From NCBI GenBank assembly GCA_963575745.1, contig CAUYUJ010000257.1:62001-116232 (forward strand): DNA of 54,232 bases. Reading direction: 5' to 3'. Source of the stretch: Prorocentrum cordatum. Lineage: Eukaryota. Numbering within the stretch: the stretch's first letter is position 1; every line of letters begins with the position of its first letter. A program made the translations under genes and the position numbers. The notes beneath the pieces were generated by a model. The model was given only the letters and a program-made list of their open reading frames with translations, was not told the origin of the DNA and made no database searches. This document shows positions 5,814-23,800 of this stretch, one piece after another.

Positions 5814-8800
5814 GAGTTGGGCACCCGAATTATCCAGGATAGGTAGACCTGGTCTGGGCAGGGCCCTGCGTGGTGTCCCCAAATCTGATCCGGGAAATCC
5901 CTGAAATCGCTTGCTCCAGAATGTGTTCTGTTTTGGGAGTGGTGGACCGTATCTATATGGGGCAGAATGTGATTCAGGACAACTCGAGTTGAGCGCAATC
6001 GGGCCTGGGGCAACTCCGTCGCGAAGAGGGAGGCCGGAATCGAGAGGTACCCTTGACCACCTCCTGCCCTGATAACTCGTGTCTGAAGGAGCGCGAGGAG
6101 GCGGTGACCGGCATCAAGCCCGACGAGGGCGGGGACTCTCCGGCGGCGCACCAGGACAGCACAACCCATCCCCACCCCCAGCCAGGACCCCCACTCCCGA
6201 CCTGGTGATCCAGGAGGTGCTGGCTGGGGGTGGGGATGGATTGGGGGCCAACAAACCACCCTCATCCCCAGCCAGGACCTTCTGGATCGCCAGCTCGGGA
6301 GTGGGGAGTGGGGGTGGGTGGGTGAGTTATGCTGCCCTCAAGGAGCGGACGCTCGTAGACCGGCTGTTCGCCAGCATCGAGTCCGCTTTCGTCCAAGAGG
6401 GGTTCCAGAGGATCCTGAGGAAGGGGAAGTCTCGGCAGAAGGGCCTCCATGGGCAGCCGCGTCGCAGGCGCGAGCTCCCTCCGCAAGGCCCGCGCCTGCC
6501 GGTGCACGAAGACGCCGACTACCCCGTCCGAGACGAGTCTGCGCAGAGTCTGGGCGGGGTGGTCGTCGAGGACCGGCGATATGCGTAAAGAGGAGGCGGA
6601 GGAGGAGGAGGAAGAGGAGGAGGAGGAGGAGGAGGAGGAGGAGGGGGGGGAGGAGGAGGAGGAGGAGGAGTGGTCCCTCGCCAGAGTGACTTCCGGTGCG
6701 GACGGGCTGGGGTCCCCTGATCGCCGCGTGCGGTGGAGCAGCAGCGGCCTGCGCTCGTGGGTCTGGCCCGTGTCTGCAACCTCACCCCTGCCTCGGGTCA
6801 CCTTTCGGCAACGCCGAAAGGAGCTGCTGGGCATGTCGCACTCTGGAGAAGCCTGGGCCGTGTTCAACACGCAGGCGGATAGGGACGAGGCCGTGGAAGC
6901 GGTCGCGAGCGCTCGCGGCATCGAGTTCGAGGGCAGCGTGATCACTCTTGAGAAAGCGGCGCTGGATCCCGATTCGATCCTCTGGGAAAACAGTGGTTTC
7001 CTGAACTCCACGAGCGATCTCGTCATGAAACTGGCCGTGGGCGGTGGCGTCGTGATGCTATCGTTGGCGGTATGGGTAGTGGCGTTCTTCGGGCCGTACG
7101 CTTACTTCGTGACCAACGCAACGTACACGTACGGGCAGGAGCTTTCTTCTCTTCACCTTCTTCGAGGATCGAGGATCTAGGTGTTTGGACGTTTCTATCA
7201 TCTTGTTCTACCTCCATGGGGCCTCTGAAGGCTACCAGGGACCTCTGGATGCCTCCCTCCTCATCCTCCCCGCCCGCCCCCTTCGCCTCGCCACTGGGCA
7301 GGAGCCCAGCAACACGGAGGTGTTTGTGTTCTCAGGGGTCGTCATTGCGGGCAACGCCCTCATGTGCTTGGTATGCAGCGAGGTATCTGACTGGGTCGGG
7401 TTCCACACGACGGACGCCCGCGAGGTCTGCAACATGCTGCTCTATCCACGTGCCTGAGGAAACCCCCGCCAGCGTGCCAGCTCAGGGGAGGCCGAGAGAG
7501 GGTTTCAGCATGGCTTCGACGCCTTCTGTGGCTGGAGCTGTGTCCCCCGCTACGCCACCGTAGGGGTACGTCGCCCTGGGGGGCCGTGGAGCCCTCCCAT
7601 TCAGCGCGAGTCGATCTCGAGCTTTTCCGAGGCGAGAGCTGGAACGTCTGAAAGCACACCGCCGAGATGTCATGAAGTTGTTTCAATGTATTTGGTTTCT
7701 TCGGGTCTCGCTGGAGGCCTCTTTGGGCCCAACTTGGGGACTTGTGAGGCCTTCTCGAGGCCTTTGGTGGACACGAGCCTTTGGGGGTCGGTTGGCCGTC
7801 GTTTGGCCGATCACTGGGCATCTGTCAGCTGTCTTGAGCCGATATTTGGCCAACTTGGTTTCGCCTTACGGCCGACACCCGCGCCGGGAAGCAACACCGG
7901 GGGCGGGCTTGATGTGTTCAGTCTGCGCATCAAACCAGAAGCCGGCCTGTCGGCTGGTGGTGCTCCACAGCCACCTGTTGCTCCCCGATCTTGCCCCACA
8001 GAGGAGAGTCCTGGGCCGCCCTGGGATGCGAGCGACGGAAGAAAGCGGGGTCGACTGTACCGGCATTCGCGCGTAAGCTTCCCGCGTAAGGTCGCGCGGA
8101 AGCGCCCTCGTCGTGCAGCGCTTCGGCGGCGGGCCCAGGGGGGACATGAGAAGGAGCAGGCCTTCTCAGAAGGCCGCGGGACTTCTCAGAAGTCCGGGGG
8201 ACTTCTGAGAGGTCTCCTTAGCCTATTTCGAATACAGACTGAACTTCTCAGAAGCCCTCTCAGAAGTTCGGAAACTTCTCAGAAGCCTCGGAAGTCCCGC
8301 CCCTTCTCATTTCCCCCCCGCGCCCGCCGCCGAGCGCTGGCGGTGGAGGGTGAGCCGCGGAGTAAGGTCGCTATCTCATCTCGCAGAAGACCCCTTTCTT
8401 TCCTCGGCGGCGAAATTCGAACTCCACCTTCGCCGATCAGCGATTCAGGCAGCTCGATGGGCGGCGGGGATGGGGTTCGGAGTTCGTCGAACACGTGGCG
8501 AAATGCGAGCCCTACCCCCGCCCCCCACCGATTCAGAAGACTCGATGGTTGGGGGTAGGGTTCGGATGCCGCCACCTGTTTTCGTCGCCCACGTGCCCTC
8601 GCCGCTTCCTTACAGCAGGACCTCTCGACGCACCACCTGCCGCGCGTGTGCGCACTTCGTCGGGGAGGGGGCCGCCTCTCTGCAGGATGCGTCGCTCGAG
8701 ATTGTCCTGACCGAAACTGCAGCCATCATTGAGACGAGGGCACGATTTCTGCATGACCTGTGAGGAAGTCTCGGACGAAGCGGCTGCTTGCACCAGGGCT

Positions 8801-20800: not shown

Positions 20801-23800
20801 TTGAGGGAGGTTGGCCGCGCCGCTCCACGGGCGACGGGAGGCCGCCTCAGGTCGGGTTTGTGGCGAGTCCCCGTCTGTCGTCTGTGCCTCGGCTCTGGGC
20901 CGAGCGGCAGGGGCGGTGTGGTGCCTGCCCTGCGTGTTGCCCACGGGGTGCGTCGAGCGAGGTGCCTGCTGACCCTCATCGGCGCATCTCAAATGATGTT
21001 TTGCCTTAGTGGTGTCGGCGTGGACGCCTTCTGCCGTCTTCGTACATTACAGTACCTGATGGTTTCTATCCTACCTTATAGTAGCGTGCAGTTTCCTACC
21101 ACATCTTACCTTATATGAATTAACCTTTTTTTCAGCCTAGCCTGTATTATCATATCATCGATTGCCTCATCTGGCCCTTTCTTACAACACCACATCTTGT
21201 ATTATCTTATGTATACACACTTTAACTTCACCTGGCACATACCATATGTTGTATAATATTCTCTTACCACATCTGAGCACACATTATACTACATGGCATC
21301 ATCTGTACATGACCGTAGATGTGTTTATCGCATAACTTGTTCTAGTCTAGTATAGGAACGGATCTTGCTCTGTCATGTAATATTGTACATGTGTTGCTGG
21401 GCTTATGTTGCCATATCATATTCTACATTCTCATACGTTGCCTGGTCCTATCTCATCATATGTTATCACGTCTTACCTACAGTATTTTTCATGCGTGCCG
21501 GTAGGATGGCCCATGCGTTTCGTTCGAGACGTCCTCGCCACTTATGATCTCGAAGCTTCGGATGGAGGCCGGGCGCTTTTCAACATGCGATTCTCGCCTT
21601 CGCTCCGCCCGCATCCGTTTTTCCCAGCCCGTCACGAGGATGCAGCGCGATACGTTTACTAAACTGGGCTCGCGCCGCTAGCCTGCAGCAGTTATGCTGA
21701 CGGAGGGCGGTGCGCTTTCAACATGGGCCTCTCACCTCAGCGCCGCGGGCGCTCGTCGTACAAGCTTCCAGCCGCTAGAAGGAGTGAGGGTGTTTGGGTT
21801 TTCGAGGCATGGTTCTCGCTTGCGCCTTCATAAGCTTTCACTGCCACACTCGTGAACACATGTATCGGCTGCTAGGATGGGGGCGGTTCCTTTTCATAAT
21901 GGGTCTATCGCTCGAGACTCGCTCATACTGACGCACCGCATGTGTACACCTGCTCAGCAATTGCACGGGCTGGGACGACTTTCTCAAATCATGGGGATCT
22001 CGATGGGCACTTCGTTGCACCTTATACTTTGCCAGAAGGCTTTTCAAAACGGGGCTCCCGCCTGAATGGCAGGCTCATGTGATGCTCGTCTTGCCAGGGG
22101 GACGCTTCTGGCAGTGAACGGGACGGTTTGTAGATGTTTCTGAGGAGGGGATTTGGGACGAGAGGCTGTCTTGCAGCATCGCTGACGCGTCCTAGCTTGG
22201 CCCTGGTTCCCCCCCTCCTCGTCCTCCTCCCCTCCTCCTGCTCCTCCTCCTCCGTTTTGGACGAGAATGCTGCCCACGACGACGATCGCGACGCTGGCGG
22301 CGACGCCAACACTGAGCATGAAGGGAACGGGTCCTGAGGAAACCGGGTCTCGGACGCTGGGGCCTTCCCCCGAGACCAGCGCTTTGAACCGAATCGTTTT
22401 TGAAGGTCCTGGTCGCCGTTGAGGGCCCGAGGGCCCGCAAACAGAGAAACACCTCAGGATCCCAAACAAATGAGCGGTACAGGCCCAAGCGTGATACTTT
22501 CCCTTGAGGCCAACGAGCGGTTGCGTACTCGCCACCTGCTTTACGATCTGCTGAGCTAGAACCCAAATGCTTCGGGCATGCAGCAAAACACCATCATCAT
22601 CCCCATCCACTGCACCTTTAATGTGCATAACGAGCATCGACACGAGCGAAGACGCGCTGTTGCGCCAGCTCAGGGCCCATTTCCTTCACGGCGACATTGC
22701 GGCGGCGATGGCGGCCGGGAGGCCAGCGGCATTGAGACGACGACGCCGACGACGCCGACGACGACGACAACGACCTCGGCGCTGCGCAGCCGCGGCAGCG
22801 GATCTACGGCCACTCCCCGCCGTGCGACTTCCGCGTGAGGGGCAAGGATCAGCATTGTTTCAACGATCCCCATCCCCATCCCCATCCCGAGCCCCACCCA
22901 TTTTGCCACCCCAGGTTGGGGATACACCCCTCGGAGCCCGAAGGGAACAGCCTACATCCCCGTCTGGGCGGGTAAATCGGCCAGTCTGGGCCCGGGCCAC
23001 GCCGTGGGGGATGGGGGTCGGATATACGACACTCCGAGGAGCACCTGCTGAGGCCGAACCCGGCGATAGGGTGCTACTTCCAGGACGCGACCCGTCTCCC
23101 GGGCCCTCCTCCGCAGGCCTCCGGCGGGCTACCCCTGCGGGTGCGATCGCCGCTAGGGTGTCGGACACCTCCGCGGGGGTCCATTTGGCTGCAGACATCC
23201 TGCGAAGTCTGAGCCCCAGCTGGCGATTCAGGATGTCTGACCTGCAGGGTCGGCGGTTCAAAGATGGGGCCCTGATGTTATCGAGAACTGGATAACCCTA
23301 ATACCACGATGAAGACGTGGCCTCACTTAGATCCCCGTCGTCGCATTGGGGATAATACATCTGGGCGGTTTGGTCTGATACAGCTGCAGAGAGACCCCCT
23401 ATTCGTAATGTTTTTGGCCCTCCTAACTTAGGTCCCCTCCCAAAGGGTCACGGGTACTTGTATTGCTTATCGCGATGGATGGGGACCTAAGGATAGGAAG
23501 GGGTACAAGGGTGGATTTACATCGGTTGGGGCACCTCGTCCTCTGGACTTTCTTCCTCGGGACCCCATCTCTGAACCGCCGAGGGGGGTAGGTTCCACGT
23601 CCGAGCGCCTATGGTTGTAGTCCTTCGAAGAAGAAACACACTGGCACCGCACTGTTAATGCAATGCGTGCGTTACTTGGCTATTTCCCAACCATCCTGTG
23701 GTGTTGGGTCCTTGTTTTGAAGTGTAACAGCGTCCCGCGTTCCTCACTCCTTCCTTCCTCCTCCCCGTCCTCCTCCCTCATCATGATCATCAGCAGCACC

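Follow-up and report, generated by a model that had tools for sequence, protein, structure and literature searches.

The DNA analyzed here, which we refer to as the window, is a stretch of 54,232 nucleotides (nt) of Prorocentrum cordatum (GenBank assembly GCA_963575745.1, contig CAUYUJ010000257.1, positions 62,001 to 116,232 of the forward strand), and it carries on its plus strand a gene for a multi-pass membrane protein that is conserved in dinoflagellates. Alignment of the homologous proteins P0002, P0003 and P0004 to the window divided this host gene into 16 exons between positions 4990 and 32662. Three of its 15 introns, hereafter odd introns 1, 2 and 3, are absent from the mRNA with exact joints, have non-canonical borders, share related termini and have ends that pair strongly with each other. 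The gene and the three introns are laid out as follows, with positions counted from the first base of the window and a caret marking a cut.

4990..32662, plus strand: host gene (portion within the window), conserved dinoflagellate multi-pass membrane protein without a Pfam family
4990-5813, 6089-6154, 6343-6570, 6821-7138, 7302-7444, 8926-9100, 9359-9493, 9629-9706, plus strand: host gene exons, first half
10888-11016, 14699-14881, 15348-15382, 15586-15770, 22803-22846, 23039-23083, 30767-30811, 32567-32662, plus strand: host gene exons, second half
7445..8925, plus strand: odd intron 1, 1481 nt, A^TC...GCGGA^C, phase 2, peptide across the joint MLLYNLAC; 7444-8924 (AT..GG) fits the RNA equally
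9707..10887, plus strand: odd intron 2, 1181 nt, A^TC...GCGGG^T, phase 0, peptide across the joint LAVLIFFFPGGY; 9708-10888 (CC..GT) fits the RNA equally
15771..22802, plus strand: odd intron 3, 7032 nt, A^TT...GCGGA^T, phase 1, peptide across the joint LRSRYIYGHSPPC; 15770-22801 (AT..GG) and 15772-22803 (TC..AT) fit the RNA equally

The membrane-protein family is widespread, with 83 relatives of 292-931 amino acids (aa) at E<=1e-30, among which only P0013 and P0002 exceed 50% identity; neither of these is a genome model. Exon 1 is 100% identical to P0001, a genome-predicted P. cordatum protein, and has 85-90% identity to the transcript-derived P0002 and P0003 and 41-49% to proteins of other dinoflagellates. 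No Pfam family was found for seven exon pieces or for full-length homologues, one match falling below the cut-off. The homologues run on without a gap at all three breaks (MLLY-NLAC, LAVLI-FFFPGG and LRS.Y-.YGHSPPC), where the window is interrupted by 1.5, 1.2 and 7.0 kb, and the transcript-derived P0002-P0005 and P0010 are among those that are uninterrupted there.

The joints themselves were read from RNA contigs of four runs from four studies (X1, X5, X10 and X17), which were compared with positions 4900-24000 of the window. X17 is a polyA RNA metatranscriptome on record; X1, X5 and X10 have no library record, yet their contigs skip introns. All four runs, with one contig each, contain the joint from 7443 to 8925 (1481 nt skipped, with a possible slide of +1), that from 9706 to 10888 (1181 nt, +1) and that from 15769 to 22802 (7032 nt, +2). 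The X1 contig has no mismatch to the window over the listed exon pieces, X5 and X10 have four clustered mismatches and X17 has about ten. The transcript protein P0013 from MMETSP provides a fifth, independent source: it matches exon 11 at 100% identity, and across the three joints it reads MLLYNLAC, LAVLIFFFPGGY and LRSRYIYGHSPPC. At a larger scale, 20 of the 24 sequencing runs listed contain 17-22% of sampled words from 6818-11019, which is approximately the exonic share, and none contains half. In the four runs, bins inside the odd introns had no cover or repeat-derived cover only, a pattern from which contigs cannot prove that retained introns are absent. Three long-range joints seen in the comparison (5017 to 22739, 20039 to 22751 and 13164 to 13725) were rejected as repeat artefacts, as their short sides are 20-36 nt in simple repeats.

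A first-pass annotation of this sequence, made from the letters alone, had proposed three non-canonical breaks in the membrane-protein gene, and the contigs of all four runs together with P0013 confirm them by joining the exons exactly. Its statements that the breaks fall in three different phases and that each cut may slide by +1 or +2 over a repeat of at most 2 nt also held, the phases being 2, 0 and 1 in the register common to the three introns and the RNA allowing slides of 1, 1 and 2 nt. The canonical alternative that it named for the first break, GAG^GT at 7424/7425 joined to CAG^G at 8947/8948, does not occur in the RNA contigs, nor do hidden micro-exons at any odd junction. Two details needed correction. 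The second intron had been placed one base off, at 9706-10886 with a methionine at the joint, a register that is excluded because the RNA and P0013 encode isoleucine; it lies at 9707-10887 or 9708-10888. The number of AG-ending introns in the window is 12 rather than 11, ten supported by RNA and two (23084-30766 and 30812-32566) canonical by homology, including those on either side of a micro-exon of 35 nt at 15348-15382 that is present in all four RNA contigs and in P0013 (…DSQQFADAELFR…).

RNA supports 13 introns between 4900 and 24000, and for each of them we enumerated all the cut positions that the RNA allows. Ten have a G[TCA]..AG^G register together with a direct repeat of 4-10 nt (six GA, two GT and two GC donors). 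No compatible register of the three odd introns has G[TCA]..AG ends, and the direct repeats at their borders are 1, 1 and 2 nt long. Their possible ends are AT..GG or TC..GA for intron 1, TC..GG or CC..GT for intron 2, and AT..GG, TT..GA or TC..AT for intron 3. Only one register is common to all three, A^TYCAS...GCGGR^Y, in which the cuts fall after the A before TYCAS and after the R following GCGG, and in which the introns read TC..GA, TC..GG and TT..GA.

Two of the odd introns nevertheless enclose pairs of ordinary splice sites that would keep the reading frame:

7450..8912, plus strand: nested canonical GT..CAG^G intron within odd intron 1, in frame, adding 18 nt and six residues (PRAVAD), used by P0001
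9711..10879, plus strand: nested canonical GC..AAG^G intron within odd intron 2, in frame, adding 12 nt and four residues

In odd intron 1 the nested GT lies five bases inside the 5' end and the CAG^G 13 bases inside the 3' end. Neither P0013 nor any of the four RNA contigs uses the nested sites, minor isoforms being beyond the reach of the contigs, and by reading of the sequence odd intron 3 has no in-frame GT..AG pair in a good context.

All three odd introns are mis-modelled in the public gene model P0001, which gains six residues, then reads through into intron sequence, meets an early stop and leaves the last exons unannotated. It reads MLLYPRAVADNLAC by way of the nested sites of odd intron 1, retaining 7445-7449 and 8913-8925, enters intron sequence after exon 7 (9494-9502) and terminates at a stop at 11041 inside the intron after exon 9 (11017-11041). 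Exon 11 is in no genome-derived protein that we found, and the same is true of exons 10-16. The N-terminal part of P0001 comes from plus-strand open reading frames (ORFs) at 1482-1757 and 2517-2804, antisense to retroelement-like ORFs, and from its composition the model looks chimeric. The published annotation pipeline for P. cordatum, as far as its accessible description goes, allowed only GT, GC and GA donors with AG acceptors, having been modified just for GC and GA (PMC10666404), and therefore introns of the odd type could not have been found.

The first-pass annotation had also proposed that the three elements have conserved termini and form a related family, and motif counts and end alignments bear this out. 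The terminal segments are these:

7445..7485, plus strand: 5' terminal segment of odd intron 1 (TCCAC GTGCC...), homologous to 9707-9747, 30 of 41 positions identical without gaps
9707..9747, plus strand: 5' terminal segment of odd intron 2, homologous to 7445-7485
8907..8925, plus strand: 3' terminal segment of odd intron 1, end GGTGGCGGA, matching 15 of 19 positions of intron 3 and 13 of 19 of intron 2
10869..10887, plus strand: 3' terminal segment of odd intron 2, end GGTGGCGGG
22784..22802, plus strand: 3' terminal segment of odd intron 3, end GGCAGCGGA

In an exhaustive scan of both strands of the window, the first 41 nt of intron 1 had their best non-self match in the corresponding 41 nt of intron 2, without a shift of register (30/41). 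At the other end, the level of 15/19 between the 3' 19-mers of introns 1 and 3 was reached at only three places in the window. The 5' end of intron 3 resembles the other two over approximately the first ten bases only, so that the consensus of the 5' ends is TYCAS followed by TGC, while that of the 3' ends spans about 19 nt and finishes GGYRGCGGR. The 10-nt 5' motif ATYCASNTGC occurs six times in the window against 1.2 expected, with half of these occurrences at the odd junctions, and GGYRGCGGR occurs 17 times against 9.8 expected, three of them at the odd junctions. All three elements are exonic and in sense orientation, and the 10-nt motif is absent from the other introns of the host gene (approximately 25 kb). 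Among the matches listed by self-BLAST, the interiors of the odd introns share only microsatellites and two short dispersed repeats, and contain no further copies of the termini. On these comparisons the relatedness of the ends exceeds chance, and we regard the odd introns as one family with conserved termini and free interiors. Within odd intron 3, the segment 19865-19883 matches the 3' 19-mer of intron 1 at 15 of 19 positions and ends GGTGGCGGC, with C rather than R as its last base; it may represent what is left of an older or nested element end.

The ends of each odd intron are also complementary. Duplexes between the terminal 20 nt of each end have predicted energies of -18.7, -22.0 and -23.3 kcal/mol for introns 1, 2 and 3, and a value of -17 kcal/mol was reached by only one of the 12 canonical introns in the host gene and by 6.5% of 2000 random intronic pairs. 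Bases +1 to +3 can pair with -1 to -3 in all three (UCC with GGA, UCC with GGG and UUC with GGA) and in 0/12 canonical introns. Within the terminal 20 nt the helix comprises 11 pairs with one bulge in intron 1, 13 pairs with mismatches and bulges in intron 2, and 11 pairs with one bulge in intron 3. Introns 1 and 2 have a common helix geometry, with +2 pairing -5 and +7 pairing -11, and differ by a change of U-G to U-A; this is the same helix as the +8/-10 stem that the first-pass annotation had recognized in both (its introns 5 and 8). Since these two introns are homologous, the similarity of their helices perhaps reflects inheritance rather than selection. In windows of 40 nt the ends of the odd introns pair at -27.7 to -41.2 kcal/mol and also cross-pair among each other.

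We consider it likely that the odd introns form a family of transposon-like, non-canonical introns that are excised from the pre-mRNA, with the position of the cut set by the terminal motifs and a terminal helix. That the locus itself yields RNA from which the introns are removed, that the helix plays a part and that a transposon was the origin are what we infer from the joints, borders and termini described above. In the mechanism that we propose, the cuts would come directly behind the A that adjoins TYCAS and behind the R of GCGGR, and the three bases at either end of the intron (UYC and GGR) would pair. A subterminal helix would then join the exon ends, formed by +2 to +12 with -16 to -5 in introns 1 and 2 and by +9 to +19 with -14 to -3 in intron 3. 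In introns 1 and 2 this helix would bury the nearby ordinary GT or GC and AG sites, which would explain why the nested sites are unused.

If excision does take place on RNA, we are mildly inclined to a recognition that bypasses the usual reading of G[TCA] and AG, that is, a dedicated route such as is suspected for the nonconventional introns of euglenids. The major spliceosome working with relaxed end rules, as proposed for Amoebophrya, is a serious contender for the same task, to which we would give a little less than an even chance. More tentatively, core dinoflagellates may possess a second RNA excision route that reads A^UYCAS...GCGGR^Y plus the terminal helix and ignores nearby canonical sites, in which case such introns would be common in P. 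cordatum, would be an unnoticed source of broken gene models, and would be convergent with the euglenid system; we put this forward as a possibility that we presently doubt more than we believe.

Several observations weigh against excision from pre-mRNA guided by motif and helix. The evidence comes from one gene and three introns, and the homology of introns 1 and 2 means that they are not independent cases for either the motif or the helix. Two copies of the 5' motif lie unused in coding sequence, at 15608-15617 (plus strand, exon 11) and at 40643-40652 (minus strand, in an ORF), both encoding IHVL, and therefore the motif alone is insufficient to define a cut. As regards the helix, that of intron 3 is spaced differently, unrestricted co-folds yield no geometry common to the odd introns and, for intron 2, no end-to-end helix at all, and in the 40-nt windows 5/10 canonical introns pair as strongly as the odd ones. 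Thus, of the first-pass proposal that complementary ends guide the excision, the complementarity stands, being strong in the terminal 20 nt, while guidance of the cut by structure does not follow from these folds. The strong pairing of canonical introns at 40 nt accords with the introner elements reported for the P. cordatum genome (PMC10666404, in its accessible part). Neither unspliced precursor nor excised product was seen in the contigs, which are blind to starts, ends and rare forms.

The homologous loci of other dinoflagellates likewise count on this side. A scan of metagenome contigs recovered 33 homologous loci, 31 of them intron-less and transcript-like and two, L028 and L030, genomic. 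Neither genomic contig (0/2) has an intron at the exact position of any of the odd introns. In L028 a GT..AG^G intron lies 2 nt away from the site of odd intron 1, where L030 has none; in both contigs the site of odd intron 2 is followed by a canonical intron 13 nt downstream; and both lack an intron at the position of odd intron 3. The introns concerned are:

L028:6207-6451, 6851-7138; L030:7241-7438: canonical GT..AG^G introns of the homologous gene, with direct repeats of 4-9 nt

Their borders were set by protein alignment and reading, no same-species transcript having at least 90% identity over more than two short pieces. The 5' motif occurs five times in the 33 loci, about the level of chance. 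The lack of introns at the exact positions in L028 and L030 indicates that the odd introns are lineage-specific or young, rather than ancient shared positions, which also fits a recent transposon insertion.

The alternative that survives best, although we think it improbable, is that the three elements are Helitron-like insertions without target-site duplication in a silent or duplicate copy of the gene, and that the mRNA derives from an insert-free paralogue or allele outside the window. Helitrons begin with 5' TC and end with 3' CTRR, insert between A and T without duplication, have a hairpin near the 3' end and, in autonomous copies, encode Rep/helicase. Conserved termini around unrelated interiors are as expected of non-autonomous transposons, the register is A^TY...CGGR^Y with a repeat of at most 1-2 nt, and small G+C-rich hairpins can be read 11-13 nt before the 3' end of each odd intron. 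Two of the three elements start with TC, and all three follow directly on a host A. The absence of introns at these exact sites in the two other dinoflagellate contigs and of precursor or retained-intron RNA in the contigs of the four runs also suits an insert-free source, and the P. cordatum assembly, which we take to comprise about 4.15 Gb of a genome of 4.75 Gb, is incomplete and could lack such a copy.

Other features of the elements and of the locus argue otherwise. The odd introns end in CGGA, CGGG and CGGA, so that CTRR occurs in 0/3; the 5' ends are TC, TC and TT; and the element is followed by a host T in only two of three, giving an A/T target in 2/3. Thus the Helitron-like register A^TC...CGGR^Y noted in the first-pass annotation, read as A^TY, proved to be the only register common to the introns, and the 3' CTRR of Helitrons is missing from all three. 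Three long ORFs tested in the 7-kb element gave no Pfam match, Rep/helicase included, at E<=0.01; non-autonomous copies do not need that protein. Helitrons are not known to undergo removal from RNA. The X1 contig is identical to the window over the listed exon pieces, and all ten neighbouring canonical introns are intact. Transcript-based modelling would easily have found an uninterrupted copy, yet there is no second P. cordatum gene model, P0001 standing alone among the proteins of 362-2000 aa searched. Nor would random insertion into a dead copy predict that all the elements are exonic and in sense orientation and that the 5' motif is absent from about 25 kb of other introns.

Excision from DNA, in the manner of internal eliminated sequences or by a somatic process in the cells that produced the RNA, is in our judgement very unlikely. 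The cuts are precise, the ends are conserved, and the joined form is known from RNA-derived contigs only, which would suit removal at either level; against this, the segments are present in an assembly made from vegetative cells and the same joints recur across four studies. Dinoflagellates are not known to have a dualism of germline and somatic nuclei. Least credible of all is ordinary G[TCA]..AG splicing at the nested sites as in P0001, with small in-frame insertions and with the odd junctions as artefacts: the sites at GT(7450)..CAG^G(8912) and GC(9711)..AAG^G(10879) do exist in frame, but 0/4 contigs use them, P0013 and all transcript-derived homologues lack the extra residues, and intron 3, by reading, offers no such pair in a good context.

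Returning to excision from pre-mRNA as the preferred reading, we compared the odd introns with known intron classes. They are not of the dinoflagellate U2 type, as they have no G at +1 and their last bases (GG or GA, GG or GT, and GG, GA or AT) contrast with AG^G in 10/10 of the other RNA-supported introns. U12-type introns have a 5' RTATCCTT, a TCCTTRAC branch site located 10-26 nt upstream of the 3' end, and AC or AG ends. The odd introns resemble these in having an ATCC core close to the 5' border, and introns 1 and 3 could begin with AT; this type was rejected, as no register starts RTATCC, no TCCTTRAC-like box can be read in the last 60 nt and the introns end in GG or GA rather than AC or AG. 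Group I and group II introns were excluded in that no Rfam family reaches its gathering score anywhere in the window. Processing by tRNA endonuclease at a bulge-helix-bulge or of the IRE1 type was set aside by reading for the known motifs, since the first bases of the intron do not pair with those of the following exon and the cuts show no CNG^CNG loop motif.

There are two closest known kinds, and the odd introns fit the code of neither. The first are the non-canonical introns, or introner elements, of Amoebophrya (Syndiniales), whose complementary ends can form a hairpin that joins the exon borders; they have direct repeats of 3-5 nt across the borders and were analyzed at lengths of 40-1000 nt (Farhat et al. 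2021, PMC7789003, here and below in its accessible part). Like them, the odd introns lie in a dinoflagellate host and have non-GT-AG borders, an end hairpin and no transposase, form a repeated family with end motifs of its own (three copies, in one gene), occur with canonical introns in one gene, and bear at their ends inverted repeats in the range of 8-20 nt, no more than 30 nt from the borders. They differ in having direct repeats of 1, 1 and 2 nt and lengths of 1.2-7.0 kb, in their end motifs (TYCAS...GCGGR, as opposed to the TTA.. and TAT.. families of Amoebophrya), and in their host, a core dinoflagellate for which the published annotation assumes GT/GC/GA-AG introns only.

Nonconventional introns of euglenids resemble the odd introns in their variable non-GT/AG borders, short spacers inside both borders, paired ends, lengths (tens to thousands of nt), suspected origin from a transposon (a miniature inverted-repeat transposable element) and unknown enzyme. 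Those of Euglena follow a code of CAG at +4 to +6 pairing with CTG at -8 to -6, with spacers of 3 and 5 nt and a purine next, in the portions accessible of PMC12501133 and PMC11282704. The odd introns have CAC, CAG and CAG at +3 to +5 in the common register; the euglenid position +4 to +6 could be taken by introns 1 and 3 only, in an AT..GG register that intron 2 cannot take. In place of CTG they have GTG, GTG and GCA at -8 to -6, with full pairing to CAS in intron 1 only, their spacers are 2 and 5 (or 3 and 4), and the next exon base is a pyrimidine (C, T and T in the common register). The two lineages, alveolate and euglenozoan, are also unrelated.

Core dinoflagellates have introners of their own. 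Splicing of the introner-like elements known from Symbiodinium and Polarella uses GH..AG sites, either their own or recruited from a target-site duplication of 3-8 nt (bioRxiv 10.1101/2020.10.14.339549, in the part available), and introner elements of the P. cordatum genome have been counted by inverted and direct repeats (PMC10666404). The odd introns are similar in their apparent descent from transposons and inverted-repeat ends, and canonical introns of the host gene also follow this pattern, with direct repeats of 4-10 nt and strong pairing in several; what sets the odd introns apart from such introners is the lack of G at +1, of a terminal AG and of a duplication. In the available text of that preprint only GH..AG introns are covered, and a 2024 review of dinoflagellate genomics, again in its accessible text, mentions other borders for Amoebophrya alone. 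Among the papers listed by a literature search, none linked Prorocentrum with non-canonical or nonconventional introns in the text within reach, with the qualification that Tables S1 and S2 of the genome paper, on introner elements, may bear on the point. We read the odd introns as a further form of the end-paired non-canonical introns of Amoebophrya and euglenids, here in a core dinoflagellate, and by this comparison introns of their kind appear to be undescribed so far in dinoflagellates.

The remainder of the window offers several further observations. The 12 canonical introns between 5814 and 32566 have seven GA, three GC and two GT donors, and all have direct repeats of 4-10 nt across their borders, an example being the 10-nt repeat at 7133-7142 and 7296-7305. 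GA donors make up 23.8% genome-wide in P. cordatum according to the accessible part of the genome paper (PMC10666404), and have been linked to recently gained introns (bioRxiv 10.1101/2020.10.14.339549, likewise in part). In exon 10, four clustered differences with 5-nt spacing (C>T, T>C, G>A and T>C, 14793-14808) separate the window from X5 and X10, are absent in X1 and X17, and are probably a strain or copy variant.

Three long ORFs on the minus strand at 47-3716 (375, 316 and 370 aa), of lower G+C, are retroelement-like and lie in the intron upstream of exon 1. No Pfam match at E<=0.01 was found for 13 ORFs of the window, including these three and the three inside the 7-kb intron. Within the intron 23084-30766, a long tandem array at 23980-25140 shows several open frames, on one strand as well as the other, and contains repeated peptide-like units (…PQWGWPHASATP…). 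On the minus strand at 40527-41282 there is an ORF of 252 aa with a plausible start (MAVDAARFLELHP…), a coiled-coil-like tail and no Pfam family, which is probably an exon of a second gene. A fourth intron of the odd type at the motif copy within it (40643-40652) was considered and rejected as a coding coincidence, the ORF reading on smoothly through IHVL; the copy at 15608-15617 was rejected likewise.

Annotation of dinoflagellate genomes assumes that every intron is of the form G[TCA]..AG, and the host gene described here breaks that rule at three of its 15 introns. If the class is common, many gene models would be truncated in the same way in the 4.75-Gb genome of P. cordatum, and perhaps in those of other core dinoflagellates. 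Excision of these introns from RNA, if true, would mean that non-canonical, end-paired introns occur not only in the parasitic Amoebophrya but also in a free-living species that forms blooms, and a family with a defined end motif would make the recognition and cutting of such introns directly testable.

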